Positions 23,459-52,748 of a stretch of DNA of 64,000 nucleotides are shown here, piece after piece (the stretch's first letter is position 1; every line of letters begins with the position of its first letter). This DNA comes from an uncultured virus (IMG/VR IMGVR_UViG_3300027732_002873) (Duplodnaviria > Heunggongvirae > Uroviricota > Caudoviricetes): the IMG/VR virus record IMGVR_UViG_3300027732_002873, positions 1 through 64,000 of that record, one strand, 5' to 3'. The position numbers and the translations under genes were made by a program. The notes beneath the pieces are model-generated. The model did not search any database. It worked only from the letters and a program-made list of their open reading frames with translations, and was not told the origin of the DNA.

Positions 23459-23524
23459 ACTTTATTATAGCACACTTCAGCAGACATTGCACACTCATTT
23501 GATTACAATATGCTATAATAAAGT
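23459..23524 (-). ncRNA. conserved-stem/variable-loop hairpin RNA H1
   Basis: 18-bp closing stem ending AGCAUAUU/AGUGUGCU, 30-nt loop, 2 nt from the tRNA-Gly 5' end. Confidence 0.6.
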
Positions 23525-23725
23525 GTTTAGCTACCTACACCACATAGGCCCTAAACTGAGCTGTTACTCTGTCCATAACATTTATTCTTTTGGGCAGGTG
23601 TTATACCTTACCTAATGCGTTCCCGCCACTCCACAACAGAGCACGGATGGTCATAGCACTACATACCTAGCACTCTTTATGGTAACTGCCCTACCCACTT
23701 TAGACGTCAAAGTGTAACCGGGTTT
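23525..23725 (-). ncRNA. candidate structured ncRNA (about 200 nt)
   Basis: No long ORF, raised GC; CACUUU/AAAGUG hairpin; GUUACCAU can pair with AUGG..GUAAC; AGGU..ACCU stem. Confidence 0.5.
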
Positions 23726-23744
23726 TCTTTGATTAAATACTACT

Positions 23745-23909
23745 ATGCAATCCTATGACATTGTCACCGAAGCAGGCCTACATTTTCATGTAAGTCTAAG
23801 CAAGCAAGGCATCTGCTATATCATTGTCAAAGATATTTTTAGCAATGACTTTGAAATGCTGTACTTTACTAACTTAGATTCTGCTTTAGATTATATTCAC
23901 AGTTTATAA
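23745..23909 (+). CDS. small hypothetical protein (54 aa)
   Basis: MQSYDIVTEAG...; TAAATA-5 nt-ATG. Confidence 0.55.
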   Translation: MQSYDIVTEAGLHFHVSLSKQGICYIIVKDIFSNDFEMLYFTNLDSALDYIHSL

Positions 23910-23910
23910 T

Positions 23911-23986
23911 TGGTTGCGGGGGAAGGACTCGAACCTCCGTCTTCCAGGTTATGAGCCTGATAGTCTACCAACTGACGTACCCCGCG
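23911..23986 (-). tRNA. tRNA-fMet(CAU), initiator type
   Basis: CGCGGGG start with C1:A72 mismatch, CU-CAU-AA, CCA. Confidence 0.9.
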
Positions 23987-23998
23987 ATAAATATATTT

Positions 23999-24532
23999 AT
24001 GATTAATTGTCTTAATATAAATCTAGACATAAGTCCTCTGAGAAAGGATTTAAATATAAACTCATATGGCACACACAATCATATTAAAATATCAATTGAC
24101 GATATTAACAATGATTTAATTTTATTTTTAAAAACTTTAAATCTAACCATTGGCCGGGTAGAATTATTTTACAATCGTCCTTTTCGTTTTAGTACAATAC
24201 ATCTCGATGACACAGGCGGAGATTATATCAAACTCAATTATGTATTCGGCGGCAAAAACAGTTTAATGTATTGGTGGAAACAAAAACCTAATATATCGAA
24301 TAGTGCAGAACTCAACTCAACCGATAGTTTTTATATAGATTATAAGATCGACCAAGTTGACTTAATCGATAAACAGCCAGTAAATTTTCCTAGTATAGTT
24401 CAAGTTGGTATTCCTCATAACATACATAATTTTGAAGAACCCAGATACTGCCTAAGTTTAGTATTAAAAAAACAAGATAATACTAGATTAACTATGGCAG
24501 AATCAATTGAAATGTTCGAACAATACTTATAA
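23999..24532 (+). CDS. 2OG-Fe(II)/cupin oxygenase-like protein
   Basis: IHLD...PHNI....R; paralogue of 46128..46679; start MINCL behind ATAAATA. Confidence 0.7.
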   Translation: MINCLNINLDISPLRKDLNINSYGTHNHIKISIDDINNDLILFLKTLNLTIGRVELFYNRPFRFSTIHLDDTGGDYIKLNYVFGGKNSLMYWWKQKPNISNSAELNSTDSFYIDYKIDQVDLIDKQPVNFPSIVQVGIPHNIHNFEEPRYCLSLVLKKQDNTRLTMAESIEMFEQYL

Positions 24533-25096
24533 TAATTCTTCTGACTTCAATATTTGAACCGTGTCTACACTTAGACCGATGTCAGTACGCACATTCAATT
24601 CCAGAACTTCGTCTTGAAGACGTTGTTTAGCTTTCTTGGCCAGATTTACAAAAACTTTAAAGCCCTTGATGTCTTCTTCAGTGAACACACTAGTGGCCAC
24701 TGTGCTTTCGTAACCGTAGATACTGCGACCTTCTTCTTTACGATTTTTAATCTTGTCCAACTTGCCCAACACAACTGCTTCTTGTTCGCGAACTGCAAAG
24801 CCAGACAACTCTGTGTAGTTCTGAATTTGCTTTTCAAGACCAGCAATCTCTGTGAGTTTGTCGTCTATGCCCACACGACTGTTAACTGCGCTGACTTGCT
24901 TGCGAATGTCATACAGTGCTTTAACCAAAGAATCTCGACGATTCAAATTAGTTTTAAACACAGTCGTAGCTTTATAAATTTCCATGATTGGATCATGGAA
25001 TTCCGTTAGACTAACTTGACCTTTAAGGTCGATGCCTTTGACGACATCATTGATACTGTTCTGCAATACACTGGCTTTACGTAGACTGATATTCAT
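24527..25096 (-). CDS. coiled-coil hypothetical protein
   Basis: 189-aa helical ORF, AAGGA SD, own TTGACT-17-TATAAT promoter at 25113-25141. Confidence 0.75.
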   Translation of the reverse strand: MNISLRKASVLQNSINDVVKGIDLKGQVSLTEFHDPIMEIYKATTVFKTNLNRRDSLVKALYDIRKQVSAVNSRVGIDDKLTEIAGLEKQIQNYTELSGFAVREQEAVVLGKLDKIKNRKEEGRSIYGYESTVATSVFTEEDIKGFKVFVNLAKKAKQRLQDEVLELNVRTDIGLSVDTVQILKSEELL

Positions 25097-25139
25097 ATAT
25101 TTCCTTTAAATAATTATACAACAAAATAAAAACAGAGTC

Positions 25140-25380
25140 AAGAAAGAAAGTAACCAACTGGACAAATAACATGCGGATTAGCTTTAACTAAAATCCTGAC
25201 AAGTCACAATGCACAAGGCACAGAGACCTGTGTATATCCAGGAGCAAGACACAATTCTGTCATATCCCGAGGGTTGGAGCACACAGGCACGAGGCGTTTT
25301 CAAGGCGCCAGCCAATAATTTGTTCGGTATCGCATGAAGCGATAACGGTGTTAGTTCTCATCTCTTTCTTTTCTCCGGGT
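25140..25380 (-). ncRNA. candidate ncRNA with repeated UGUG/UUGU motifs
   Basis: Non-coding, closing AGAAAG/CUUUCU stem, internal hairpins, about 8 UGU(G) motifs. Confidence 0.45.
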
Positions 25381-25418
25381 AGTTATCTTGTGGATATACT
25401 ACCAAAAAACTTTAATCT

Positions 25419-25577
25419 TTACTTGTCTTTTGGACCACGCTTGTTACCGCGCAAGTCTGATTCAAACACTTTTACATAACTTCTCATAATTTCACCACGC
25501 TTGTGTGGATCTGTTTCATAGGCCGCAAAGCGTCTAATTGCTTTGGGGATTTTAACTGCTCTTGGATCGTATGCCAT
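25419..25577 (-). CDS. small basic hypothetical protein
   Basis: MAYDPRAVKIPK...; AAGGA SD. Confidence 0.55.
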   Translation of the reverse strand: MAYDPRAVKIPKAIRRFAAYETDPHKRGEIMRSYVKVFESDLRGNKRGPKDK

Positions 25578-25594
25578 TTTATATTTCCTTTAAA

Positions 25595-25792
25595 TTATTT
25601 TTGACTTTGTGCAATCAGTCTATTAACTACATTAAGGTCGAACTCTAAGCTAGAGATTTTTTCTTTAAGAGCCTGGTATTCTGCATTGTGTACATCTTTA
25701 CTATGAGTTACAATGTCAAAATACATGGCTGCGGCCTCTGCGTGTAGCTTCCTAACATCATGTTCTAACAACTCTCGTCTATCTACTAACAT
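25595..25792 (-). CDS. hypothetical protein
   Basis: 65-aa ORF with AAGGA SD. Confidence 0.6.
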   Translation of the reverse strand: MLVDRRELLEHDVRKLHAEAAAMYFDIVTHSKDVHNAEYQALKEKISSLEFDLNVVNRLIAQSQK

Positions 25793-25811
25793 ATTAATTC
25801 CTTTAAAAATT

Positions 25812-25886
25812 TGGCGGTCTCAACGAGAATCGAACTCGTCCCTACGGCGTGACAGGCCATTATACTAACCGATATACTATGAGACC
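25812..25886 (-). tRNA. tRNA-Asp(GUC)
   Basis: Cloverleaf, CU-GUC-AC, CCA. Confidence 0.95.
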
Positions 25887-25893
25887 AACTTAC

Positions 25894-26718
25894 CTAAGTT
25901 ATGCACTTCTGCAATAACTTGTTAACTTCTATTCTAAACACACTTTCTTTTTCTGGCCAAGCATAAATGTATTGTCCTGCAAAGTCCTTGACCAACAACC
26001 ATGTAATGCCTGCGGCTGTGTACATGTGTGTCTCCGCCTCATAGCCCGGGATAGACCTATCAAAGTTAATGCTGCCATCACCATAGTCCTGGCCATGCTG
26101 TCTAACCCAATCTGCCACACTTTGTACTTCTCTGTCTGTGTTAGGACCCATGCCGCCCAAGTTAGCTACTACAAAGATTTTGCTAGTAGGTGTCGTTGTC
26201 ATAGTCTTAAAGACACTACGCCCCAGCTGTCTAATTTGGTCTTTGACGTTACCTGGTAGTGCTGCCACTTGATGGAAGTCTGGTACCAAGTAGCCTGCCT
26301 TGCGTAATGCGTATTCTGCTGTTGTTGCTAATGTTGTAGTCTTAACTACAACTACAGGTACCATCTCAGGTGTCTCGGGCTCAACACTACTAGTCTGTTT
26401 TTGCACAGTCTTTACAGGCTGTTGCTCAATACTAGCGTTATATGACGGCAGGTCGGCATCAAGTTTGATGTCTAACATCTTACCTAGCACATCCTGCATG
26501 GCCCTGGTAGGTTTAATTTTACCTGTGGCCGCCAATGTTTTACTAACACTGGCCTTGTTAACTTTTACAACTTTAGGATTGTCTTGTTTTGCCTCAGGTT
26601 TAACCTTGGGTTTTTCTGTGTGCTTGACGATGGGACGGGCTGTGCCTGTCTTAAAGATGTTGTCGAGATCTATGTTAGTCTGTGTTTGTGTTTGTGTTTG
26701 TGTTTTTCTTGTTGCCAT
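25894..26718 (-). CDS. hypothetical phage protein
   Basis: Low-complexity N-terminus, globular C-terminus (FHQV..LPG, YIYAWP). Confidence 0.75.
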   Translation of the reverse strand: MATRKTQTQTQTQTNIDLDNIFKTGTARPIVKHTEKPKVKPEAKQDNPKVVKVNKASVSKTLAATGKIKPTRAMQDVLGKMLDIKLDADLPSYNASIEQQPVKTVQKQTSSVEPETPEMVPVVVVKTTTLATTAEYALRKAGYLVPDFHQVAALPGNVKDQIRQLGRSVFKTMTTTPTSKIFVVANLGGMGPNTDREVQSVADWVRQHGQDYGDGSINFDRSIPGYEAETHMYTAAGITWLLVKDFAGQYIYAWPEKESVFRIEVNKLLQKCIT

Positions 26719-26722
26719 TATA

Positions 26723-27841
26723 TCACCATTGTGGAAGTTTCTTCATTTTAGAAGTAAGTTTGAGACCAATTGTCTTTAACACTTCCTTACGCATCTTATC
26801 TCGTTGCGTACGGCCTGCCTTTGTCATATTGTTAGTGCCCAGTATTTCTCTACTGTACATTGTCCAACTTACTGCATGTTTAGCAATGAGAGGTTCCTGT
26901 TCTACCCATCTTGCCTTTTTAATAAACATAGCATATTCTTGGCTACTACGTGGACCCAGGGCCATCTGCGGCTCTATTAGGTCATACTTTTTAGCTAACA
27001 GGTCTTTACAAAAGCCTTCCATGCCGCCAGCATAGGAGTTAATCTTTTTAACGTGCTTAATGTTAATGCCCGTTTCATCTAAAACATATTTGACCATGTC
27101 GTAGAGTCGGTCCTGCTCGTGTTGTGCCTTCTTTTGCTTAAACAGATAATCTGTGTATGCTTTTATTTGGTTTTTTATAATCTGACCAAGTACAGGATGT
27201 TCTTCAAATTTTTGTTGCTCTGCCCAATCTAATCTTCTATCTCGGGCATCATATAATGTAATTCTGTTAGCATAGTCATGTTGGATCTGATATTGGTACT
27301 TGCTACCATTGCGGTCTCTCCAAACATATAAATCACTGGTCTCAGTGTAGTCTTTAAAGAAAGTTGCCTGTGTAGTACACCACTTTGTGCCTGCACCCAA
27401 ATGTCTTGCGGCGGTAGCGGTTTGTGGACTGGCCAACTGGCCAAAAGGACCATTGTACAATATCTTTGTGTTTTTAATAATTGGAAAGGCACCTTCTTCT
27501 TTTACAGTTTTAGTTACTAGTACTTCCTTAATCTCAGGATTGAGAACTTTATCTATGGTCTCATCTAGCTCATAAAAACTAAATTGGTTAATGTCTCGCT
27601 TAGCCAAACGAGGTTTTAGCTTGTCAAAATTTGTTAATACAGTTTTAACTCTTTCTGTATCCTCAAACTTAAATTGGTTATTGATTAGTTGTTTGGCCAG
27701 CCAAGGAACATACTGCAAGTTCTTAGTGGGATCCATTTTCTCTAGTGCAATGACGATGTCCACCACTTCCATTTTGGTATGGCGGACTACGTCTGTAAAT
27801 TTGTTTTTAAACTTTTCTACAGTTATCTCTCTTTTGGACAT
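26723..27841 (-). CDS. hypothetical jumbo-phage protein
   Basis: DPTKN.QY..WL, RDINQF and GAGTKWCT motifs; GGAG SD. Confidence 0.75.
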   Translation of the reverse strand: MSKREITVEKFKNKFTDVVRHTKMEVVDIVIALEKMDPTKNLQYVPWLAKQLINNQFKFEDTERVKTVLTNFDKLKPRLAKRDINQFSFYELDETIDKVLNPEIKEVLVTKTVKEEGAFPIIKNTKILYNGPFGQLASPQTATAARHLGAGTKWCTTQATFFKDYTETSDLYVWRDRNGSKYQYQIQHDYANRITLYDARDRRLDWAEQQKFEEHPVLGQIIKNQIKAYTDYLFKQKKAQHEQDRLYDMVKYVLDETGINIKHVKKINSYAGGMEGFCKDLLAKKYDLIEPQMALGPRSSQEYAMFIKKARWVEQEPLIAKHAVSWTMYSREILGTNNMTKAGRTQRDKMRKEVLKTIGLKLTSKMKKLPQW

Positions 27842-27865
27842 TATGTCTCCTTGTACTAAGATTGT

Positions 27866-27894
27866 AGTATACTATAGATGTCATTTTATGTCAA
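27866..27894 (-). promoter_or_regulatory. sigma70 promoter
   Basis: TTGACA-17 nt-TATACT. Confidence 0.8.
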
Positions 27895-27911
27895 TTTGCG
27901 TTTTGCCAGGA

Positions 27912-27994
27912 CATATTGAAACACACTAACTACCTTGGTATGTACTCAAGTTCATTGAACCGCTACGACCCTATCTTTAATGTGTTTCAATATG
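27912..27994 (-). ncRNA. conserved-stem/variable-loop hairpin RNA H2
   Basis: CAUAUUGAAACACAUU / AGUGUGUUUCAAUAUG, 51-nt loop. Confidence 0.6.
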
Positions 27995-28225
27995 CTCTGC
28001 ATCCCCCGGCGGTAATTGTAGTACATCAAGATATGACGCTATCATACCCATCACACGTACCTTCCACCCGCTTCCCGACAGGGACCGTTCTCGTATTGCT
28101 AACGCCAGTTCGGTTTAACTGCGGCTTGCGCCGGAGCAGATTTACCATCCCCATTGCTGGGGGCAGGCCCTTGCTCGAACCACCCGTACACATCACTGCA
28201 CTTCATCCTCTGGGTCAGAGTAGCC
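27995..28225 (-). ncRNA. candidate GC-rich structured ncRNA (about 230 nt)
   Basis: CUCUG/CAGAG closing stem; GCAA-capped hairpins (CCCCA-GCAA-UGGGG, CGGC-GCAA-GCCG); follows tRNA-Glu. Confidence 0.65.
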
Positions 28226-28243
28226 AACGATACTTGGCATGTT

Positions 28244-28318
28244 TGGTAGAGCGTAGGAGAATCGAACTCCTCTTACCGACGTGAAAGGCCAGTGTCCTAA
28301 CCGATAGACGAACGCTCC
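28244..28318 (-). tRNA. tRNA-Glu(UUC)
   Basis: Cloverleaf, CU-UUC-AC, CCA. Confidence 0.93.
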
Positions 28319-28324
28319 GAAAAA

Positions 28325-28400
28325 TGGTGGAGGAGACAGGGATCGAACCTGCGACCTATTGCTTGCAAAGCAACCGCTCTCCCAACTGAGCTACACCCCC
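28325..28400 (-). tRNA. tRNA-Ala(UGC)
   Basis: Cloverleaf, UU-UGC-AA, CCA. Confidence 0.95.
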
Positions 28401-28412
28401 ATTATAAAAACT

Positions 28413-28488
28413 TGGCTCCTCAGGCTGGGCACGATCCAGCGACCAACGGATTAACAGTCCGCTACTCTACCAACTGAGCTACTGAGGA
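28413..28488 (-). tRNA. tRNA-Asn(GUU)
   Basis: Cloverleaf, CU-GUU-AA; atypical T-loop AUCGUGC. Confidence 0.92.
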
Positions 28489-28494
28489 ATAATT

Positions 28495-28570
28495 TGGTGG
28501 GTCGTGACAGGCTCGAACTGCCGACATTCTGCGTGTAAGGCAGACGCTCTACCAACTGAGCTAACGACCC
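28495..28570 (-). tRNA. tRNA-Val(UAC)
   Basis: Cloverleaf, CU-UAC-AC, CCA. Confidence 0.95.
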
Positions 28571-28572
28571 GA

Positions 28573-28713
28573 TTATCTTGTAAATTTTCTTACTAGAACT
28601 AACCAGTAGTACTTAACACCACGTGGTGTAGGTATCCATGACAAATCGAAACTCATGCCAACTTCTTTAGGAATATTCCCATAGGCTTTTTCAATTATTT
28701 CGTTAGTTGTCAT
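28573..28713 (-). CDS. small hypothetical protein (46 aa)
   Basis: MTTNEIIEKAYGNIPKEV...; AAGG SD; lies inside the tRNA array. Confidence 0.55.
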   Translation of the reverse strand: MTTNEIIEKAYGNIPKEVGMSFDLSWIPTPRGVKYYWLVLVRKFTR

Positions 28714-28728
28714 ATTAACCTTTTACTT

Positions 28729-28816
28729 TGGCGGAGCATGTAGGAATCGAACCTACTCACCCATTGCTGAATGACAGATTAGCAATCTGTTGCCTTAACC
28801 GGTCGGCCAATGCTCC
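28729..28816 (-). tRNA. tRNA-Ser(GCU)
   Basis: Long variable arm, UU-GCU-AA, CCA. Confidence 0.95.
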
Positions 28817-28839
28817 AATGTACTTACTTATGATATCAA

Positions 28840-28912
28840 CTCACACTAATGTCCTGTAGCTAGAACAGGCCTCTCACTGTTGCCAGTGACGCAGTCACAC
28901 TTTAGTGTAAAT
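28840..28912 (-). ncRNA. tRNA-sized three-way-junction RNA candidate
   Basis: ACACUAA/UUAGUGU closing stem; UCACUG-GCAA-CAGUGA and CCUGU/ACAGG hairpins. Confidence 0.45.
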
Positions 28913-28920
28913 TAAAAAGG

Positions 28921-28986
28921 GGAGAGCCACGGTTGCAGGACCTAGTGCTTTGTTACCAAAGGAAGTGTCCAGGCGATGTGGCTCTC
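28921..28986 (-). ncRNA. small structured RNA candidate
   Basis: 9-bp GAGAGCCAC/GUGGCUCUC closing stem, UUUG-GUAA-CAAA hairpin. Confidence 0.45.
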
Positions 28987-29073
28987 AAAATTAAAACATG
29001 GCAGGTGAGGTATCCGGTTATTGATTAGTCAATAACTTTCCCATTCTCCTTTTACTTTCCTTACCACAAAACT

Positions 29074-29150
29074 TGGTGCCCAAGGAGAGACTCGAACTCT
29101 CAAAATTTGGCTTCTAAGACCAACACGTATACCAATTCCGTCACCTGGGC
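29074..29150 (-). tRNA. tRNA-Leu(UAG), short variable loop
   Basis: CU-UAG-AA, 77 nt, no long variable arm, CCA. Confidence 0.9.
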
Positions 29151-29372
29151 ATTCATATGTAAAAATACTATAGGAACCATTGTACATCTATGTCTACCCA
29201 GGGGAACGTCTCCGTCAAGGGCCTGTACGGTCATTACTTCCTACATACTCCGTCGCATCTCCAGAGCTTGCGCTCCTGTTTCATATACTTATATTGAGCG
29301 TGAGCGGCCTCACTGTCCTCGCCTTAAGTACCTAACGGTGTAGGTAACCTATAATACATTTACATATGAATG
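29150..29372 (-). ncRNA. candidate structured ncRNA (about 220 nt)
   Basis: Long imperfect terminal stem (CAUUCAUAUGUAAA...UAUAGG / CCUAUA...UUUACAUAUGAAUG); GAGC-GCAA-GCUC hairpin; abuts tRNA-Leu. Confidence 0.6.
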
Positions 29373-29403
29373 ACGCTTCACAGCGTTTCATATGTGGGAT
29401 AAA

Positions 29404-29416
29404 TTTTTAAAGAACA
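29404..29416 (-). promoter_or_regulatory. boxA-like antitermination site
   Basis: TGTTCTTTAAAAA versus rrn boxA TGCTCTTTAACA, just downstream of tandem promoters. Confidence 0.65.
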
Positions 29417-29440
29417 ATGCTAATTGCTTAACATAGAACT

Positions 29441-29469
29441 ATTATAACACAGAATCCAATTTATGTCAA
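29441..29469 (-). promoter_or_regulatory. sigma70 promoter P2 of the tRNA array
   Basis: TTGACA-17 nt-TATAAT. Confidence 0.88.
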
Positions 29470-32556: not shown

Positions 32557-32559
32557 TAG

Positions 32560-33372
32560 TTAGCTTTTCTTTTTGATTAAATCAATTATCCAGCCGCTAG
32601 GATCAATTTCCCACCAGCGTACTCGTCCAAAATTATATGCTTGCACGTCGCCATGATGATTATTATGCCAGCATTCACCTAATACAAACGGAAATAACCA
32701 CGGACTATTAACACTGTTGTCGCCGGATTCATAGTTTTGATAACCCATTACTTTAAAATGATTCAATGAATTTGTAATACTGTAGCTATGAAAAGTGATA
32801 AAACTAGGAACTATAACGAACCAAATCCAAAATTCAAAACTAATTAATGCTATTACTAAATTTGCAGTCCAATATAGTTCCATATAATATTTGTGACAGA
32901 ATGCATATACTGGATTTTTTAATAAATCAATAATATGTCTGTAATTAATATCCTTTTCTTCTATCTTCCAAAGCCATAAAAACCAGCTAGTCATCAATCC
33001 TTTATTGGGACTATGCGGATCTTTTTCGCCATCACTATAGGGATGATGCAGATCTCGATGTGTCGCTGTCCAGAAAATAGGACTGCCCTGACCCGCTAGC
33101 ATAGCAAAGAATAGAATAATGTATTTGATTGGAGTATATGTTTCAAAACTTTTATGACTAACATATCTATGATAGCCAATAGTAACTCCCAGCATCATGA
33201 TGCAAAAATATCCCAGACCTAAATACAGCCAATATAAATTTTCCCACATACCATTAAATACAGATATAATGGCGGCTATGGCTATTAAATTCATGGGAAT
33301 CAGGCCCGCCCATAAATTTTTATATTTAAAAGTTAATTTAAAAAAATCAACGAAAGTTAATTGTTTACGCAT
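32560..33372 (-). CDS. membrane fatty-acid desaturase
   Basis: HRYVSH, HRDLHH, GECWHNNHH; DPHSP. Confidence 0.92.
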   Translation of the reverse strand: MRKQLTFVDFFKLTFKYKNLWAGLIPMNLIAIAAIISVFNGMWENLYWLYLGLGYFCIMMLGVTIGYHRYVSHKSFETYTPIKYIILFFAMLAGQGSPIFWTATHRDLHHPYSDGEKDPHSPNKGLMTSWFLWLWKIEEKDINYRHIIDLLKNPVYAFCHKYYMELYWTANLVIALISFEFWIWFVIVPSFITFHSYSITNSLNHFKVMGYQNYESGDNSVNSPWLFPFVLGECWHNNHHGDVQAYNFGRVRWWEIDPSGWIIDLIKKKS

Positions 33373-46679: not shown

Positions 46680-47215
46680 TCGTCGATGTAACCAGTTTCT
46701 TGCAACATACTGTGTACCTGATCAAAGGTATAGTTACTTGATTGTAATACCAGAGCAACTCTGTCAACAGTACTGGATTTTAGATTCTTAACGCTGTGTG
46801 GGCTAGACACATCCAATAACCAAGCATCTCCGGATTCTGCTACAAAACTTCCAGCGTGTTCTAAATTTTCTTCTTTAAATGTCCTGCCAGTAGTTTGAGT
46901 AGTCATTTTAACTCCTAGGCTAGCATCTACTTTCTTAAAGAAATTTGTTTGGCAATCAACGGCTTTGACATAAAAATTTATAGTAGCATACACGTAGCTA
47001 TCTGTATGAGGAGGAATGTTATAATTTATTTTCATTTCTCTTGCAAAGAAATCTTTTCTATATCTCTCAGGGATAACCGAAAGCATCAAATCTTTATTGT
47101 AATTATCAATGTTATAGAATCCAATGCCCTTGCCATTGATGGCATATTCGTTGATCAATGATGTTTCTGTAAAATTACTAACATCAAATTTTTTATTAAG
47201 TTTGATAAATTGCAT
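46676..47215 (-). CDS. 2OG-Fe(II)/cupin oxygenase-like protein
   Basis: PPHTD...PHSV......R. Confidence 0.72.
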   Translation of the reverse strand: MQFIKLNKKFDVSNFTETSLINEYAINGKGIGFYNIDNYNKDLMLSVIPERYRKDFFAREMKINYNIPPHTDSYVYATINFYVKAVDCQTNFFKKVDASLGVKMTTQTTGRTFKEENLEHAGSFVAESGDAWLLDVSSPHSVKNLKSSTVDRVALVLQSSNYTFDQVHSMLQETGYIDD

Positions 47216-47220
47216 AATTA

Positions 47221-47238
47221 TATTTATAGGTATAAATA
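47221..47238. promoter_or_regulatory. back-to-back T4-type late promoter motifs
   Basis: TATTTATA-gg-TATAAATA, each 5-6 nt from the ATG of a divergent gene. Confidence 0.7.
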
Positions 47239-47244
47239 CTTTTT

Positions 47245-47790
47245 ATGAACACTGCTGATTTTTATAAGCCTGTACACATCGAAAATCTCAACGAAATACA
47301 ACAAGAAGTATTAAAATTAATACCTGAATATTTACTCGATAAAACAACATTAACTTATATAGAAAATAATAAGGAAATATTTCTTAAAGTTGCCGCACTA
47401 CGCGATTTTTTAAAAAGTAAAAAAATGCTCGATTCAGTGGGTTCGATTGCTGTCAACGTAACCGTTGGAAAAGACGCCGGAACTTATCACATGGACAGTG
47501 GTCCTTTTAAACATAGTTTAAATATACCAATAATCGGCTGTGAAAATACTTGGATTAATTTTTTTAAAGTGAACTCTGATTATACCATTGTCAAAGTAAA
47601 CAATAAGGGTAAGACTCATCAATTTTTTAGATACACCGAAGACCAGTGCGAACTAATATATGAAGCTGAAACATATGAGCCATACATATTGGGAGTAAAA
47701 ACTCCGCACAGAGTTGTCAATAATGGTGATCAGACTAGGATCATGATCTTAATAAGATTGTTTCCTGGACCCTGGGAAGAAACTATTTAA
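47245..47790 (+). CDS. 2OG-Fe(II)/cupin oxygenase-like protein
   Basis: HMD, LNIPI, PHRVVN....R. Confidence 0.72.
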   Translation: MNTADFYKPVHIENLNEIQQEVLKLIPEYLLDKTTLTYIENNKEIFLKVAALRDFLKSKKMLDSVGSIAVNVTVGKDAGTYHMDSGPFKHSLNIPIIGCENTWINFFKVNSDYTIVKVNNKGKTHQFFRYTEDQCELIYEAETYEPYILGVKTPHRVVNNGDQTRIMILIRLFPGPWEETI

Positions 47791-47793
47791 TAA

Positions 47794-47870
47794 TGGCCGG
47801 CCCTGAGAGATTCGAACTCCCAACTTCCAGTTTCGAAGACTGGCACTCTATCCAATTGAGTTAAGGACCG
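47794..47870 (-). tRNA. tRNA-Arg(UCG)
   Basis: Cloverleaf, CU-UCG-AA, CCA. Confidence 0.93.
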
Positions 47871-47874
47871 CGGG

Positions 47875-48804
47875 TTAAATTTTATATTTTTCAGACCTAA
47901 TATCAGTCGGACAAGTACAATATTTAAATGGACAGGCTAGATAGTTAGTATCTAAATTAAAATCAGTTATGTGACCCAGAGATTTAGCATTACATATTCC
48001 GGCATTGACTTTTCCGTTAAAATCAATCACTAAACTTTGACTAGCTACTTTACATTTCCAACCTTTAAATTCATTCCAATTATTGATAGTAATTTTACCC
48101 AGGACTAAATTTTCAGCTGATCCGTCGTCGAAATATATCACTGAGTTAATAAAGCCACGGGATGATGACGGATTCGCAATGTGGTTTTTAATCCATGCGG
48201 TTTGTTCATCTGTATAAGAATAATTTTCTCTAGTTGTTTCTAAATAATTTAGAACTTTTGTAGTTACCATTGGTTTCAAATAATCATCTATATTGTCGTA
48301 TAACTCTAATACAGTATCCCATCTGTCAGGATCGCAACTAAGGTTGAACAATATCGAAGTGCCGGACTCTACTATAGATTTTGCCAGATTATTTACTTTA
48401 TCTATCTTTGTAAACTCTGGATGAAGGGACATTGTTACATTATCTAAAAATGGCAAAGCTTCGCTCCACCATTCATCACTTCTAGATCCGTTGGTAGTGA
48501 CACCTAGATAAACATTTTCTACACTCATATATTTTATAATGTCAAGGAAATTAGGATGCAATGTCGGTTCGCCACCACCAAACTGAAGATTTAAATGCGT
48601 TCCGGAAGCTGCCACAGCTTTCAGCTTGTCCATAAAAATTATAATGTCAGAATAAATTGGAAAGCCTGGTAATTTTCCATTGGCATACTTTCCGCTGTGC
48701 AAGAAACTAGGACAGTAATTGCATTTAAAGTTACAAAAATCAGTGAGCTTCCAGTATATATTTATAACTGGTTTTTTGGGAATAATTTTAATAGGTTGTT
48801 TCAT
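47875..48804 (-). CDS. radical SAM protein with C-terminal Cys cluster
   Basis: CNFKCNYC, GGEPT, TTNG; start MKQP. Confidence 0.9.
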   Translation of the reverse strand: MKQPIKIIPKKPVINIYWKLTDFCNFKCNYCPSFLHSGKYANGKLPGFPIYSDIIIFMDKLKAVAASGTHLNLQFGGGEPTLHPNFLDIIKYMSVENVYLGVTTNGSRSDEWWSEALPFLDNVTMSLHPEFTKIDKVNNLAKSIVESGTSILFNLSCDPDRWDTVLELYDNIDDYLKPMVTTKVLNYLETTRENYSYTDEQTAWIKNHIANPSSSRGFINSVIYFDDGSAENLVLGKITINNWNEFKGWKCKVASQSLVIDFNGKVNAGICNAKSLGHITDFNLDTNYLACPFKYCTCPTDIRSEKYKI

Positions 48805-48840
48805 CGTGTATTTAAAGGTCAAATATGCTTTTTTTATTTT

Positions 48841-48928
48841 TGGCGGAAGCGGTGAGATTCGAACTCACGGAGCCTTTCGACCCGACAGTTTTCAAGACTG
48901 TTGCAATAGACCACTCTGCCACACTTCC
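48841..48928 (-). tRNA. tRNA-Ser(UGA)
   Basis: Long variable arm, CU-UGA-AA, CCA. Confidence 0.95.
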
Positions 48929-48934
48929 TTTATT

Positions 48935-49010
48935 TGGAGCGGCTAACCGGGTTCGAACCGGTGACATTCACGTTGGCAACGTGATGCTCTACCAACTGAG
49001 CTACAGCCGC
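48935..49010 (-). tRNA. tRNA-Gly(GCC)
   Basis: Cloverleaf, UU-GCC-AA, CCA. Confidence 0.95.
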
Positions 49011-49017
49011 ATTTTTT

Positions 49018-49091
49018 TGGCACCCGGGATAGGAATCGAACCTATACTAGCAGAGTCAAAGTCTGTTGTGCTGCCACTACACTACCCGGGA
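49018..49091 (-). tRNA. tRNA-Gln(UUG)
   Basis: Cloverleaf, CU-UUG-AC, CCA. Confidence 0.93.
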
Positions 49092-49100
49092 ATAAAAAGG

Positions 49101-49246
49101 TTTTCAGGAACTAGTCTTTGTACTATAGACTAGCGTGTCTCGTATAGGCAAGTTTATACACCCATCAATCATACTATAGTGTCATCACAGTTAACCCCAC
49201 TGTGACTAGATTGACAGGGACTCGAACCCATCGTCTATCCCGAAAC
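49101..49246 (-). ncRNA. tRNA-like/Y-RNA-like structured RNA candidate
   Basis: UUUCGGGA/UCCUGAAA closing stem, T-arm GGG-UUCGAGU-CCC near the 5' end, further hairpins; no anticodon arm. Confidence 0.55.
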
Positions 49247-49247
49247 T

Positions 49248-49324
49248 TGGTAGCCTCACTCTGACTCGAACAGAGGACCTATGCGTTATCAACACATTGC
49301 TCTAACCAACTGAGCTATGAGGCT
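49248..49324 (-). tRNA. tRNA-Ile(GAU)
   Basis: Cloverleaf, UU-GAU-AA, CCA. Confidence 0.93.
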
Positions 49325-49328
49325 AAAA

Positions 49329-49403
49329 TGGTACTCGATAGCGGAGTTGAACCGCTCTTACCTGGTTGAAAACCAGATGTCCTAACCGATAGACGAATCG
49401 AGT
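49329..49403 (-). tRNA. tRNA-Glu(UUC), second divergent copy
   Basis: Cloverleaf, UU-UUC-AA, CCA. Confidence 0.9.
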
Positions 49404-49409
49404 AAATTT

Positions 49410-49485
49410 TGGTGCCACAAACTGGACTTGAACCAGTAACACAAGAATTTTCAATCCTCTGCTCTACCATTGGAGCTACTGCGGC
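49410..49485 (-). tRNA. tRNA-Phe(GAA)
   Basis: Cloverleaf, UU-GAA-AA, CCA. Confidence 0.93.
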
Positions 49486-49494
49486 AAATTTGAT

Positions 49495-49570
49495 TGGGGA
49501 GTCGTACGGGAATCGAACCCGTATTAACGGAATCACAATCCGTGGTGTTAACCGTTACACTAACAACTCC
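49495..49570 (-). tRNA. tRNA-His(GUG)
   Basis: G-1:C73, UU-GUG-AU, CCA. Confidence 0.93.
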
Positions 49571-49571
49571 A

Positions 49572-49646
49572 TGGTGGTGATAGTTAGATTTGAACTAACG
49601 ACCGGCCGCGTATGAAGCGGATGCACTACCACTGTGCTATATCACC
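49572..49646 (-). tRNA. tRNA-Met(CAU), probably elongator
   Basis: Paired 1:72, UU-CAU-AC, CCA. Confidence 0.88.
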
Positions 49647-49718
49647 ATATAGAAACACACTTAAAACTGCTGTTAAACCCTTGCAGAGGCATGCCTAGTT
49701 AAAAAATGTGTTTCTATA
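49647..49718 (-). ncRNA. conserved-stem/variable-loop hairpin RNA H3
   Basis: AUAGAAACACAUU / AGUGUGUUUCUAU, 43-nt loop; fills exactly the spacer between tRNA-Lys and tRNA-Met. Confidence 0.6.
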
Positions 49719-49794
49719 TGGTGGGACCAGCGAGATTCGAACTCGCGACCAACGGATTAAAAGTCCGCTGCTCTACCGGCTGAGCTATAGTCCC
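49719..49794 (-). tRNA. tRNA-Lys(UUU)
   Basis: Cloverleaf, CU-UUU-AA, CCA. Confidence 0.95.
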
Positions 49795-49905
49795 ATATGA
49801 TCCATGCTCCAAGAGCGTGGATGGATTTGTAAAAATTTTCTTTTACGTGCCATCCATGACCATACGGGTCAAAGATGACACTATCGTTTCGCCGAACGTT
49901 TCATG

Positions 49906-51156
49906 TCATTTTTCCTTATCTAAAATTAACGGGATACCAAATGTATTCTCGAACGATTCGTTTCTAATCTTATCGTATGTTTGAGTAAACTCTATAAAGT
50001 TCTTCTCATCGAGCGGCCTAGAAACATTCAACATCTTCACCACCTTCGGACGTAAATTCAGCAATTCATTTCTAAATATTGCAAAATTAGGACAGTCTAA
50101 TATATCTACTGCTAAATCAATTTCACGTAACATACGTTCTTTGAGATGTGCAGGTGCAGATGTAAAACGAAGACTTTGCACTAATATAGTATAACATTTA
50201 ATCAATATGTTATTATTTTCACGATATAGTCTCATCAAAAATAATGCCAGATTAGATACATCTAACAAAACATAAGCTGAAATTGCAACATTTATCGAGC
50301 ATAATATTGGCTTTGGCATAGAATTGAATGTTAATACATTTTTTTCAATTGTGTCCCACTTTGTACCGTGTCTAATGTATTCAGCTGTTTTACCAACGCC
50401 GTCGATGCTCATGGTAAATTCTACTTTAGGGAATTTCATTAAACGATCTACAAACAGTTTATTATATACACTTGTATTTGTAAATAATTCTAATTCAACT
50501 TGCTCGTTAAATTTGTGTTCAATTAAAAAATCAAGATAATCATAATAACCTTTGATTAGAAATGGTTCCCCGCCAGTAAAACATACTTTACGCAATTCAC
50601 TTAGTAATTCGATATTCTTTAAACCTTGAATATTATCATCAGTAATTTTTAACACGCTGTCGTCAGTGTCTTCGAAAAAGATATTATCGGGATTATGAAT
50701 ACCATTACTGGCTAAATTGTATTTTTGTTTTTCTTTTGCAATTTCAGAACTCGATGTTTCGTCACACATTCTGCATTTCATATTGCACAAATTACTAAAT
50801 CTCAATTCTATTCGTTTAGGCTTTGTGGGAGTATCAACAGTTATATCGTCAAACCATGGTTGATCTTCTAGATAGGGCTCTTCACCTATGTTCCAGTAAC
50901 GCCAAGAAGCACCCCTGGTACTTTTGAGACCTAATCCTTCTTTCGTTTCGCAATTTTCGCATTCTTTTGGGCGTATGCCATTAATCATTTTTTGTTTAAT
51001 GTCTACTAACCACTCGCTGTTTATATACTCTTCCATGGTCATGTTCATGAGACCGTTTCTTATGATATGGCACGGACTTGGAGAGTTGATATGAAAATAC
51101 ATTGCAGTCCATGGATTTGGACATATAACAGTTTGAGAGAATTTGGTTTTTGACAT
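49906..51156 (-). CDS. radical SAM protein with N-terminal Twitch/SPASM-like domain
   Basis: CPNPW...PC...CENC; CNMKCRMC; TGGEPF; SIDG. Confidence 0.9.
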   Translation of the reverse strand: MSKTKFSQTVICPNPWTAMYFHINSPSPCHIIRNGLMNMTMEEYINSEWLVDIKQKMINGIRPKECENCETKEGLGLKSTRGASWRYWNIGEEPYLEDQPWFDDITVDTPTKPKRIELRFSNLCNMKCRMCDETSSSEIAKEKQKYNLASNGIHNPDNIFFEDTDDSVLKITDDNIQGLKNIELLSELRKVCFTGGEPFLIKGYYDYLDFLIEHKFNEQVELELFTNTSVYNKLFVDRLMKFPKVEFTMSIDGVGKTAEYIRHGTKWDTIEKNVLTFNSMPKPILCSINVAISAYVLLDVSNLALFLMRLYRENNNILIKCYTILVQSLRFTSAPAHLKERMLREIDLAVDILDCPNFAIFRNELLNLRPKVVKMLNVSRPLDEKNFIEFTQTYDKIRNESFENTFGIPLILDKEK

Positions 51157-51189
51157 AGTCTATTATTTAGTACACTGGCATTACTTATT

Positions 51190-51263
51190 TGGCGTACCCA
51201 CTAGGACTCGAACCTAGACTGACGGTTTTGGAGACCGCGATGCTGCCATTACACTATGGATAC
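51190..51263 (-). tRNA. tRNA-Trp(CCA)
   Basis: Cloverleaf, CU-CCA-AA, CCA. Confidence 0.93.
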
Positions 51264-51271
51264 GAATTGAA

Positions 51272-51490
51272 TTTGTAAGTAGTGCTACCACGTTATCAGC
51301 ACCATTCACCCGATTATACTAGTCCGGACGGGAGTCGGTACGTCACTTGGGATTCATCCAGCTGATACGCCATAATGTATACCGATTACCAACGAAGGCG
51401 ATCAGTCGGGCATCGAACCCGCAACCTTTTACTAGACAGTACCTTCGAAGAATACTGAACAGCGTGACTTCACTTGCTGACACTTACAAA
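51272..51490 (-). ncRNA. candidate structured ncRNA (about 220 nt)
   Basis: UUUGUAAGU/ACUUACAAA closing stem, GUCAC/GUGAC pairing, T-arm-like CGGG-UUCGAUG-CCCG; between tRNA-Asp and tRNA-Trp. Confidence 0.65.
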
Positions 51491-51493
51491 ACT

Positions 51494-51568
51494 TGGCGAT
51501 GCGTGGGAGAGTCGAACTCCCGTCTTCGGATAGACAATCCGAGATAATAACCGTTATATGAACGCACC
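51494..51568 (-). tRNA. tRNA-Asp(GUC), divergent copy with U37
   Basis: Cloverleaf, loop UU-GUC-UA, CCA. Confidence 0.88.
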
Positions 51569-51574
51569 TAAATT

Positions 51575-51659
51575 TGGTGGAGATTACTGGGATCGAACCA
51601 GTCGTGCCCTAAGGCGGCGGATTTACAGTCCACTGCATCACCATTGATGCTTCATCTCC
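51575..51659 (-). tRNA. tRNA-Tyr(GUA)
   Basis: Variable arm, CU-GUA-AA, CCA. Confidence 0.93.
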
Positions 51660-51660
51660 A

Positions 51661-51715
51661 TTAAACATACTGTCTGCGACATTTTAGTCCAGGCCAGATC
51701 AATATGTGTATTAAA
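51661..51715 (-). ncRNA. conserved-stem/variable-loop hairpin RNA H4
   Basis: ACAUAUU / AGUAUGU, 29-nt loop; abuts tRNA-Tyr 5' end. Confidence 0.5.
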
Positions 51716-51744
51716 ATAATAAATATATTAAACTAATAATTTAT

Positions 51745-52074
51745 ATGAATGAGATATTCACCGAACTTAACGAAATATTTAAAAGGAGCCCTGCTCGTTT
51801 TTTAAAAACATATTTTCGTGCTAACATATCTCCAATATCAAATTCTACAATTAAAGTAGAGATATCATCTACTTTAGATTTTTTTGGAGATCGAGTGGTA
51901 AATCCATTCCCTAACTATCAAGAAGACTATCAAAAATTAATAGAAAAATGGCACGCCACTGGCATTGCAATAGGTTCTATAGAGTACTACTTAACTGATA
52001 AAAAACTTAATTATTCTAAAGAAATTTTTGTCGTCGACGATGAAATTAATGCGAGGTTCATAATCAATGTATAA
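51745..52074 (+). CDS. hypothetical protein
   Basis: 109-aa ORF antisense to the tRNA array. Confidence 0.6.
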   Translation: MNEIFTELNEIFKRSPARFLKTYFRANISPISNSTIKVEISSTLDFFGDRVVNPFPNYQEDYQKLIEKWHATGIAIGSIEYYLTDKKLNYSKEIFVVDDEINARFIINV

Positions 52075-52660
52075 TTTTATTAAACAAGATACATTTAAAA
52101 AATGTCAACGATCCTTTGATGTTCACAATCAGCTTGACGGTGAATTTATGAATTTAATAAAAAACACACACGATGACTTTATTTCTCACGAAAAGTTAGA
52201 TATAAACAGTTTTGTTATTACCGACGAATCAGAGATAAAATTAATTCATTCAAGTGCTAATCACGAATATGAATTACCTAAGTTTGCATGGAAAACTAAT
52301 ACTCAGGTAATAGCACCTATATTAATCTTGTGTACGCCAAAAAGAAATAACGATATGCACTCAATGATGCAAATTGGCAGGTTACAAACTAAACTAGGCA
52401 TGCTAGCAATTGAACAAGGATATTTAACTGGCTTCTGCTGTAGTTTCAAGATTCATGCAATGTCAGCTTGGGATACTTTAAAAAAGTATATTCAAATTGA
52501 CGAAGCTTCGGGTCAACTGATTGCTCCAATAACATTATCTATAGGAAAGCCATTTGATGCCACAAAACCATATAACTGGTCTCACATGCATTATAAGTTT
52601 CACGGGCACCATTATAGAACCGATTATACTAATATTACAGTAACATATCCCGAAGAATAA
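52067..52660 (+). CDS. nitroreductase-like protein (divergent)
   Basis: CQRSFD, N.QV.AP, G..TGFC.. and LSIG motifs. Confidence 0.6.
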   Translation: MYNFIKQDTFKKCQRSFDVHNQLDGEFMNLIKNTHDDFISHEKLDINSFVITDESEIKLIHSSANHEYELPKFAWKTNTQVIAPILILCTPKRNNDMHSMMQIGRLQTKLGMLAIEQGYLTGFCCSFKIHAMSAWDTLKKYIQIDEASGQLIAPITLSIGKPFDATKPYNWSHMHYKFHGHHYRTDYTNITVTYPEE

Positions 52661-52748
52661 TTTAAACACACTCTTTGGAATGTGTGTATTAAAGCATACT
52701 AAGGCCAATGTAGTGGACCATCCTTAATTTAGTAATATGCTTTAATAC
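52661..52748 (-). ncRNA. tandem hairpin RNAs H6 (33-nt loop) and H5 (6-nt loop)
   Basis: GUAUUAAAGCAUAUU / AGUAUGCUUUAAUAC followed by ACACAUU-CCAAAG-AGUGUGU. Confidence 0.55.

Follow-up and report, generated by a model that had tools for sequence, protein, structure and literature searches.

Known systems with comparable hairpins

Leader-trailer helices that are cut by RNase III are found in bacterial rRNA operons, and the maturation of the T4 tRNA cluster includes an RNase III step. The tRNA-miRNA transcripts of murine gammaherpesvirus 68 (MHV68) carry tRNA-linked hairpins which are released by tRNA processing enzymes. In two-piece tmRNA, an intervening segment joins the 3' CCA end to the pairing 5' end and is removed in maturation (PMC9004378, which cites Keiler et al., 2000 and Sharkady & Williams, 2004). 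T4-type phages carry promoter-early stem-loops (PeSLs) (PMC4122927; PMC2839356). These are short, of the G/C type, joined to a sigma-70 promoter, and located between ORFs (PMC4122927).

The DNA analysed here (the window) is a stretch of 64,000 nucleotides from an uncultured virus of the Caudoviricetes (IMGVR_UViG_3300027732_002873). It carries six hairpins, which are genuine members of a large, uncatalogued RNA hairpin family. With the RNase III leader-trailer helices they share a long uninterrupted stem that flanks mature ends in a polycistronic precursor and encloses an interior, but their stem is near-constant across many sites and phages, their interior is short, variable, and optional, and cleavage is only proposed here. 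As in MHV68, a hairpin may follow straight after a tRNA, so that tRNA 3' processing would free it; however, the phage hairpins belong to a bacterial setting with no microRNA pathway, and they pair with the 5' end of the next tRNA. Like PeSLs, they are repeated conserved stem-loops in plastic T4-like regions, with insertions, deletions, and exchanges between relatives, but they have 18-20-bp AU-rich stems, large inserts, and a fixed register to tRNA ends. The T4 RNAs rnaC and rnaD (NC_000866) are likewise extra small RNAs, of unknown function, which are co-transcribed with phage tRNAs, but these are single RNAs of 119-139 nt and not a repeated stem family. When the T4 tRNA region (68000-75000) was searched with hairpin model R1, no member was found, and the best match (10.3 bits, E 0.63) lies at neither rnaC nor rnaD.

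Six hairpins in the window

A first-pass annotation had described six minus-strand elements (H1 to H6) with a common inner stem, RCAYAUU/AGURUGY, and loops of 30, 51, 43, 29, 6, and 33 nt. Refolding and a motif scan confirmed the minus-strand folds, coordinates, and loop lengths of all six, and the six minus-strand matches of the motif RCAYATT..AGTRTGY are these elements; one further match, on the plus strand of the 77.4-kb contig, is likely a chance occurrence. The orientation had been deduced from a constant U·G wobble. In agreement with this, the MFE (-8.5 to -30.9 kcal/mol) is lower on the minus than on the plus strand in every case. A covariance model, whose training alignment included all six window elements, was applied with filters off (scores are given below); four elements score on both strands, each 11-16 bits higher on the minus strand, and H4 scores on the minus strand only. 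There was no separate match for H5, and the model detected no additional family member in the window.

H1 (23459..23524, minus strand) has a 19-bp stem with the core GCAUAUU/AGUGUGC and a 30-nt insert (47.1 bits). It ends 2 nt ahead of the tRNA-Gly(UCC) gene directly downstream (23383..23456, minus strand) and is devoid of the consensus CCA base. H3 (49647..49718, minus strand; 63 bits) had been described as an exact fill of the spacer between two tRNAs, and this is correct: it occupies the entire 72-nt gap between tRNA-Lys(UUU) (49719..49794, minus strand) and tRNA-Met(CAU) (49572..49646, minus strand), with 0 nt to spare. Its pairing (49643-49723) extends into both tRNAs. tRNA-Lys contributes its terminal CACCA, with the 3' CCA at the base of the 5' arm, and tRNA-Met contributes its initial GGUG, the first bases of the tRNA pairing with this CCA. 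H4 (51661..51715, minus strand) is degenerate, with the core ACAUAUU/AGUAUGU, an interrupted outer stem, and a 29-nt insert (27.5 bits, E 3e-4). It ends 1 nt ahead of a long-arm tRNA (51578..51659, minus strand), which was called by Rfam only (36 bits) and whose anticodon loop we read from the sequence as GUA (Tyr).

H2 (27912..27994, minus strand) has the canonical arms CAUAUUGAAACACAUU/AGUGUGUUUCAAUAUG and a 51-nt insert (56.9 bits). Upstream is a conserved non-coding RNA-like stretch of about 245 nt, and downstream is a promoter-like site of the sigma-70 type, TTGACA-17-TATACT (27866..27894, minus strand, 11/12 matches), which lies about 17 nt past the H2 stem (the pairing reaches 27911) and heads a 372-aa ORF (26723-27841). 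H6 (52686..52748, minus strand) has the arm variant GUAUUAAAGCAUAUU/AGUAUGCUUUAAUAC and a 33-nt insert (41 bits); this variant is also present in the related loci L005 (7-nt loop) and L022 (39-nt insert). H6 is in tandem with the mini-hairpin H5 (52661..52693, minus strand; ACACAUU-CCAAAG-AGUGUGU), which had been noted as nearly empty. Such tandems of a large hairpin and a mini-hairpin are likewise present in L029, L005, and L022, where the H5 counterparts are capped by CGAAAG or CGCAAG (C-GNRA-G). H6/H5 lie at the junction of a minus-strand unit with the end of a plus-strand ORF.

The surroundings of H2 and H6/H5 might indicate a transcript 3'-end element, that is, a terminator-like or exonuclease-blocking hairpin which closes tRNA/ncRNA units, comparable to the stem-loop half of PeSLs. 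Strong promoters also follow hairpins in L049 (two) and L063. In addition, RNA-library contigs from three runs in three studies start close to a perfect promoter (53313-53285) and end at 52767-52787, just ahead of H6. However, they end before the hairpin and not after it (15-35 nt short of the H6 5' base). These are assembled contigs, for which DNA carry-over is possible, and they are a weak hint at the processing role discussed below. Many hairpins lie between tRNAs inside one array, and only eight of 85 unique hairpins are followed within 75 nt by even a loose promoter motif. The stem is not followed by a U-run, none of the six elements was called terminator-like, and the consensus directly after the stem is GGU(A/G), unlike an intrinsic terminator with its G+C-rich stem and U-run. 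We thus consider a 3'-end function decidedly unlikely.

A hairpin family in uncultured T4-like phages

The observation made in the window holds, and the family is far larger than the window. The same hairpin, with the consensus CCAUAUUGAAACACAUU–insert–AGUGUGUUUCAAUAUGG, was found in more than 100 uncultured viral contigs, the carriers being uncultured T4-like lake phages. The complete 169-kb phage record G004 has one convincing copy; one other, short match in the motif scan was read as chance. Related phages also have sister hairpins whose arms differ in sequence but which are built alike (CCA..UGG base, 18-24-bp stem, interior of about 80 nt). There was no convincing copy in prokaryote genomes, no copy in GenBank phages, and no record of the family in the literature searched. 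No Rfam 15 family overlaps the six hairpins, either at the gathering score in the window or at E <= 1 over 22000-56000. The same applies to the hairpins of 12 related loci (E <= 0.05-0.1), except for tmRNA models that span those of L024 and L068.

The first-pass annotation had stated that the outer stems differ in sequence but stay paired. Among 55 sequences, 96.2% of the stem cells are paired compared to 86.8% in shuffles (0/500 as high), and this drops to 30-52% when the partner is slid. Both sides have changed in 13 of the 19 stem pairs, which is strong covariation; the stem pairing is under selection. Of 91 distinct model matches, 87 retain the U·G wobble, and several stem pairs are invariant, a constancy which is inflated by the arm-sequence-based sampling.

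Resemblance to CRISPR repeats was considered because the arms contain AUUGAAAC and GUUUCAAU, which we take to resemble the ends of some type I/III repeats, and because empty hairpins have the form of a repeat without a spacer. A crRNA mimic or RNA anti-CRISPR, for which these 8-nt strings and the empty form are the only indication, is disfavoured and extremely improbable: the arms are inverted, not direct, and a search of 596 Gb of prokaryote genomes for the arrangement 'arm end - 25-55 nt - arm start' returned 21 single matches, with no multi-hit array and with the extended arms in none of them. Nor was a CRISPR-like array with these arms found in 185,579 prokaryote species genomes.

A long closing stem with a variable module is also a feature of Y RNA/YrlA (RF02553), and in L062 a YrlA-like match below threshold (40.6 bits; cut-off 69) lies about 65 nt from the hairpin. 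However, the hairpin stem is devoid of the bulged Ro-binding site. Neither RF02553 nor RF00019 matched the hairpins, and TROVE (Ro60) was found in 0/5 phage records, one of them complete. Integron attC sites are imperfect hairpins with extrahelical bases which lie at the 3' end of ORF cassettes and go with an IntI integrase; here the helices are perfect and the neighbours are RNA genes.

Strand and register relative to tRNAs

In 69 related loci (437 kb), the core with at least three extra pairs occurs 98 times on the tRNA strand and never on the other strand. For the 91 distinct model matches, the best score is on the tRNA strand in 88 cases and on the other strand in one, and there is no tRNA nearby in two. 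The co-orientation of the hairpins with all tRNA genes implies joint transcription. The register is precise: in 37 of the 38 cases with a tRNA within 30 nt, the upstream tRNA has its 3' CCA exactly 7 nt ahead of the core, and the downstream tRNA starts 8 nt past the core in 14 of 28. A tRNA abuts on at least one side in 46 of 101 hairpins and on both sides in 10. Within 60 nt, 57 of the 101 hairpins have a tRNA and only eight an ORF of at least 80 aa. The hairpin neighbours are RNA genes, not proteins. This also sets the family apart from PeSLs, which lie between ORFs in hyperplastic regions and directly precede an early promoter of the sigma-70 type; in the window, a promoter motif accompanies H2 only.

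In two contigs, L024 and L068, a permuted tmRNA has the hairpin as its intervening segment (in L024, beta_tmRNA 135 bits, tmRNA_permuted 126 bits). The permuted tmRNA of L001 has no hairpin-model match inside, and no tmRNA was found in the window. Compared to this segment, most hairpins lie between two different RNAs (tRNA-tRNA, ncRNA-promoter), and the hairpin sequence is common to dozens of sites per island.

Variable inserts on constant arms

The inserts are either 4-7 nt or 27-122 nt long, with none between, and empty hairpins with 4-7-nt caps recur across the family. The loops had been described as unrelated. This is true for the six inserts of the window, and throughout the family 78 inserts form 59 clusters, 49 of which are singletons. 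Certain classes of insert are found in more than one contig and conserve both a sub-hairpin and a single-stranded stretch; in class A, one pair is compensated among nine sequences. In L063, three hairpins with unrelated inserts have the doubly compensated arm variant GUUCA/UGAAC in common. At one site in three related contigs (L001/L005/L022), there is no hairpin, an empty hairpin, or one with a 39-nt insert.

The annotation had proposed a constant protein-binding handle with exchangeable cargo. According to this model, the constant stem would be the handle by which a phage or host protein binds, and tRNA processing would free hairpin RNAs of 70-150 nt whose inserts serve as decoys, aptamers, or guides in trans; it is compatible with a processing function but places the function in the released RNA. 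The strand-specific family, the near-constant stem including its wobble, and the inserts exchanged on constant arms support parts of it, as do the recurring insert classes, the bimodal insert length, and hairpin arrays without intervening tRNAs (L035, L063). The register would allow excision of a 14-bp hairpin by RNase P and tRNA 3' maturation. The AUG noted in all five long loops is indeed there, but AUG is not enriched in the family (39/78 loops vs. 43.9 +/- 4.3 in shuffles), and neither are palindromes. Against the 77-kb phage contig, the five long inserts of the window match no better than shuffled controls do. The degree of structure in the inserts exceeds that of shuffles only slightly (mean z -0.38; 19% below -1), and most clusters are singletons. 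The empty hairpins are kept, which indicates that the stem has a role without cargo. Candidate binding proteins were not found (TROVE 0/5 records, RNase III 0/5), and the gene for an RNase H-like protein (PF04308) shows no linkage to the hairpins (11/78 loci). On balance, we regard a function in the released RNA as unlikely, though not far-fetched.

The exchange of inserts may also be viewed at the DNA level, as that of a selfish or recombinogenic repeated palindrome (MITE/REP-like, or a PeSL-like shuffling site) which spreads in tRNA islands and whose arms serve as mini-homologies for insertion, deletion, and exchange, without RNA function. The 17-19-nt arms are inverted as in MITE/REP elements, absent, empty, and loaded states occur at one site, and the L063 arm variant is common to three paralogues. 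There are many copies per island, the element is missing from many related islands, and HNH endonuclease genes are frequent in them (12/69 loci). The minimum spacer of about 27 nt would stabilise a long DNA palindrome. However, MITE/REP copies within a genome share their interior and the hairpins do not. At the sole polymorphic site examined (L001/L005/L022), there is no target duplication, and the hairpin-less allele resembles an imprecise deletion. The arms stay paired through compensatory changes, for which neutral terminal repeats have no need. All 98 copies in the related loci are oriented as the tRNAs are, their register to CCA and G1 is base-exact, and the hairpin acts as a tmRNA linker. 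A purely DNA-level element is therefore rather improbable.

A possible role in precursor processing

Processing sites of the tRNA precursor had been named in the first-pass annotation as an alternative that would refute its model; they are the leading reading here. We tentatively favour, as possible and close to probable, that the hairpins are cis-acting double-stranded processing or punctuation stalks of polycistronic small-RNA precursors, able to carry a variable insert. An uninterrupted helix of about 18-20 bp beside mature RNA ends is consistent with an RNase III stalk. The selected pairing, the strand bias, the register to tRNA ends, the tmRNA linkers, the RNA-gene neighbours, the empty forms, and the sister hairpins all speak for this reading.

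Several points argue against the stalk reading. As such, tRNA arrays do not need the hairpin: among 78 related tRNA-island loci, found via a neighbouring gene, 67 have no match at E <= 1e-4, and 45 of these carry at least five tRNAs. A generic RNase III site would not need such sequence constancy, and a pure spacer model does not predict bimodal insert lengths. Among the six window elements, the canonical register on both sides is seen in H3 only. RNase III is encoded in none of five phage records, so that the host enzyme must be assumed.

Under the stalk reading, long transcripts of tRNA/small-RNA islands would carry the hairpins, and the 18-20-bp AU-rich helix would form in the transcript. 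The register shows that, in the canonical case, the upstream tRNA supplies C74-C75-A76 to the helix base and the downstream tRNA supplies U(-1)-G1-G2. As both tRNAs contribute to the base, the helix ties the 3' CCA end to the next 5' end, and this fixed register makes a release by tRNA processing, as had been suggested, plausible. Such a tie parallels the two-piece tmRNA precursor, in which the hairpin, as seen in two contigs, is the excised linker. A double-strand-specific endonuclease may then cut the helix and free the flanking RNAs, with host RNase III as the obvious candidate; alternatively, RNase P might act on the 3' side and 3' maturation of the RNase Z/BN or RNase E type on the 5' side. 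The capped hairpin with its insert would then be released and be either a by-product or a small stable RNA. The recurrence of empty hairpins indicates that the stem works without an insert. The insert would thus be optional, and the arms may double as short homologies by which these phages swap or lose inserts.

The hairpins of the tRNA island

The coordinates claimed for six minus-strand hairpins in the first-pass annotation (H1 to H6; 23459-23524, 27912-27994, 49647-49718, 51661-51715, 52661-52693, and 52686-52748) were borne out. All six are marked by the inner-stem motif RCAYATT..AGTRTGY (the core), for which the plus strand carries a single match, likely by chance. Each element folds into a hairpin as described, the minus-strand RNA being more stable in every case, and H3 does fill the Lys-Met spacer to the base. 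Neither a relaxed scan for hairpins nor a model search run without filters detected a seventh member in the window.

The window carries 26 tRNA genes called by ARAGORN and a 27th found with Rfam; they occupy the region from 22.6 to 55.2 kb and are without exception encoded on the minus strand. The 27th (51578-51659, minus strand; Rfam 36 bits) is a long-arm tRNA of 82 nt which was missed by ARAGORN and whose anticodon loop is read as GUA (Tyr). The tRNA genes are interspersed with numerous genes of unknown function and with three radical-SAM genes, one of which codes for a SPASM domain. Together with a PP-loop ATPase gene, the radical-SAM genes are located amid tRNA clusters at 47875-48822, 49906-51156, 53480-54895, and 55243-55893 (minus strand), and the products of these four genes may be tRNA- or peptide-modifying enzymes. 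At 51745-52660 (plus strand), two ORFs of 109 and 197 aa, framed by H4 and the H5/H6 pair, are oriented against all surroundings; searches of Pfam and PHROG returned no match for them. An Asp/Glu racemase, a sodium:dicarboxylate symporter, and a family-3 solute-binding protein are encoded adjacent to each other at 5390-9057 (minus strand), and elsewhere the window codes for fatty-acid desaturases (21078-22609 and 32560-33372), an acyl carrier-like protein, and ClpP.

The window is the first 64 kb of a 77.4-kb virus record with a G+C content of 37.6%, and a near-identical IMG/VR record of 111.6 kb has a completeness rating of 31%. When the 47.0-53.5 kb stretch was compared to GenBank phage records by megablast, only tRNA genes matched. 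Gp23, the T4-type major capsid protein, is encoded by three of five related long records. Metagenomes from fresh water and from lakes contain the stretch again, as do six RNA libraries. This points to a large, uncultured, T4-like phage of lakes as the source.

H2 is preceded by a conserved non-coding stretch of ~245 nt and followed by a near-consensus promoter. The stretch, located between tRNA-Glu and H2 (27998-28243, minus strand), folds better than shuffles (z -2.51 for a 341-nt fold that also spans H2). In 12 of 68 hairpin loci, it has counterparts with 76-92% identity across 49-171 nt. A perfect TTGACA-17-TATAAT promoter is located after tRNA-Thr (53285-53313, minus strand). RNA-library contigs from three runs in three studies start near this promoter, cover ~500 nt (52767-53268, with ORFs of only 41 and 59 aa), and stop 15-35 nt before H6. 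The RNA evidence consists of assembled contigs of four RNA-library runs, in which depth and uncovered parts carry no weight; the stop before H6 is a weak hint of a processing stalk, against which a 3'-end element was weighed as a rival.

A hairpin family in related viral loci

A 20-base two-arm pattern derived from H2 and H3 retrieved 72 loci from IMG/VR, and their flanks yielded a longer consensus (CCAUAUUGAAACACAUU - insert - AGUGUGUUUCAAUAUGG, the insert being the loop interior and the arms the two halves of the stem). The 17-nt 5' arm alone matched 119 stretches; in the 80 loci that were fetched, 77 of 87 such arms had a matching 3' arm, the inserts of these hairpins being 29-122 nt long. 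A covariance model built on an alignment of 55 hairpins produced 353 hits (both strands counted) in 438 kb of related loci, and the copies in a single island can number ten or more.

A scan of 596 Gb of prokaryotic genome sequence with the two-arm pattern gave only 21 single hits, none with the extended arms and none in a tRNA array. Only two chance-level hits, nothing convincing, were obtained from 50,697 GenBank phage records, and the T4 tRNA region gave no hit. A search of Rfam, as proposed at the outset, likewise found nothing convincing, and sequence-string and keyword searches of the literature (subscription journals being outside their coverage) returned no description of the element. 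The nearest described repeated stem-loops, the PeSLs of T4-type phages, differ from the hairpins in every defining feature tested. The family is real and, apparently, undescribed.

The hairpin is missing from 67 of 78 related tRNA-island loci, 45 of these 67 having at least five tRNAs, which makes it an accessory device rather than a necessity. Sister hairpins with different arm sequences follow the same plan, which suggests that structure, more than sequence, is the functional core.

A second family of long hairpins, with arms CAUUAGUUUUGCUGAUGUA / UGCGUCAGCAAAACUAAUG and interiors of ~80-92 nt, is present also in islands that lack the main family. Its members were located in the related loci L003 (2507-2631), L006 (17-146), L036 (395-522), L222 (560-681), L224 (2497-2616), L236 (457-586), L247 (2725-2855), and L250 (1709-1825).

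Pairing, strand, and the conserved wobble

The hairpin is an RNA-level structure. Pairing in the alignment of 55 hairpins amounts to 96.2% of cells compared to 86.8% after shuffling (none of 500 shuffles as high), and drops to 30-52% when the partner is slid. Changes on both sides were found for 13 of 19 stem pairs, with free covariation at the innermost-facing first pair of the core interior. Whole arms also vary in a complementary manner (UUGAA/UUCAA, UAGAA/UUCUA, GUUCA/UGAAC, UUUCA/UGAAA, and GUAUUAAAGC.../...GCUUUAAUAC).

The U·G wobble in the core, which had been claimed to be constant, is kept in 87 of 91 distinct model hits and is replaced by C-G in the other four; U-A occurs at this position in a few lower-scoring relatives. 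Hairpin loci were sampled through their arm sequence, which inflates apparent sequence constancy, but not orientation or register. Across 69 loci, the extended motif occurs 98 times on the tRNA strand and never on the opposite strand, and the tRNA strand is the best-scoring one for 88 of the 91 model hits.

Register relative to mature RNA termini, and the tmRNA linker

Among 38 hairpins with a tRNA located within 30 nt upstream, the distance from its CCA end to the core is exactly 7 nt in 37, which makes the CCA the base of the 5' arm. Of 28 downstream tRNAs, 14 start 8 nt past the core, a spacing at which their G1-G2 pair with C75-C74 of the tRNA upstream. Each of the three CCA nucleotides of this base is kept in 64-76 of 84 unique hairpins, many of which have no upstream tRNA call. 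A tRNA is abutted on at least one side by 46 of 101 hairpins (on both sides by 10), and only 8 of the 101 have a protein-coding neighbour within 60 nt.

Permuted (two-piece) tmRNA genes were found in three phage tRNA islands (L001, 4892-5172, minus strand; L024, 2889-3258; L068, 2892-3091). In the latter two, the hairpin is the exact intervening segment of the permuted tmRNA, stacked on the acceptor stem; none of the listed model hits falls inside the tmRNA of L001. A complete phage record of 169 kb has the tmRNA-linker copy as its one convincing hairpin, together with one other short motif match, likely by chance.

In L001, L005, and L022, the hairpin at 2993-3069 is preceded by a strongly conserved stretch (~110 nt upstream) whose end, ...GGGAACCA, directly adjoins the base of the hairpin. 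This stretch may represent another CCA-ended RNA which is called by no tool.

Inserts

Inserts are either 4-7 nt long (empty forms, some capped C-GNRA-G) or at least 27 nt long, with nothing between in any listing. Such a bimodal length, together with the sequence constancy, suggests either a specific partner or a DNA-level constraint. Besides the 3'-end element, the rival readings weighed were the initially proposed constant protein-binding handle with exchangeable cargo, a recombinogenic repeat acting at the DNA level, and a crRNA mimic. That inserts are exchangeable on constant arms was supported: three hairpins of one locus (L063) share a common derived arm variant and carry different inserts. 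At a site upstream of tRNA-Cys, the states seen in L001, L005, and L022 are no hairpin, an empty hairpin, and a 39-nt insert.

The 78 inserts form 59 clusters, 49 of them singletons, and are only slightly more structured than shuffles (mean z -0.38). A few classes recur between contigs; in one of them, a small hairpin with covariation and an invariant single-stranded run are preserved. For the five long inserts of the window, the longest exact matches to the 77.4-kb phage contig are 10-13 nt, within shuffled controls. The AUG noticed in the window loops is not a signal, being present in 39 of 78 loops versus 43.9 expected.

Palindromic kissing-type loops were rejected as a general feature (6-mers in 32 of 81 versus 38.2 expected; 8-mers in 12 versus 11.8); one insert class keeps a self-complementary hexamer. 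The T-loop-like motif GGTTCRA is real but rare (3 of 86 inserts versus 0.43 expected), so that inserts are not tRNA remnants in general.

Candidate partner proteins

None of five phage records encodes RNase III or a TROVE protein. Sub-threshold hits to YrlA (Y RNA-like) were obtained in L062 (3143-3244, plus strand, 40.6 bits, full length) and L063 (5184-5240, 29.9 bits, partial), and a similar motif follows hairpins in L028, L035, L063, and L064.

The commonest island protein gene codes for PF04308 (RNase H-like, YkuK family; L032, 970-1569, minus strand, and relatives), being present in 17 of 69 hairpin loci and in three of the five phage records; HNH endonucleases are second (12 of 69). The PF04308 family is uncharacterised (PMC3985635). 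Only 11 of its own 78 loci have a hairpin within 5 kb, so there is no specific link.

Mechanism and implications

We infer that the helix is a processing stalk and that the hairpins are processing or punctuation hairpins of RNA operons, a known kind of element, with a fair chance of more. A double-strand-specific nuclease may cut the helix, presumably the host RNase III, because none of the five phage records encodes this enzyme. Alternatively, RNase P and tRNA 3' maturation could cut at the two feet of the helix. Both routes would free the neighbouring RNAs and release a capped hairpin.

We consider it rather unlikely that the hairpin is a universal socket for small-RNA expression. In this reading, tRNA processing would excise a constant stem, perhaps bound by a dedicated protein, on which the phage lineage displays a rapidly changing collection of inserts of 27-120 nt. 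These would serve as decoys, aptamers, or guides that target host factors or defences, and phages would exchange them via mini-homology recombination at the arms. If true, this would be an RNA analogue of a gene-cassette system, built on tRNA punctuation.

The tRNA islands of large phages also hold several uncatalogued RNAs. To our knowledge, the processing of such mixed polycistronic precursors into functional molecules has been worked out mainly for phage T4. The hairpin family provides a concrete, testable element: one short sequence which pairs a CCA end with the first bases of the next RNA and which also serves as a tmRNA linker. As a processing stalk, it would yield a simple new rule by which RNA gene borders could be annotated in the genomes of hundreds of uncultured phages, and a portable module to release RNAs from operons. 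If the inserts are functional, they would constitute a new class of phage small RNAs.
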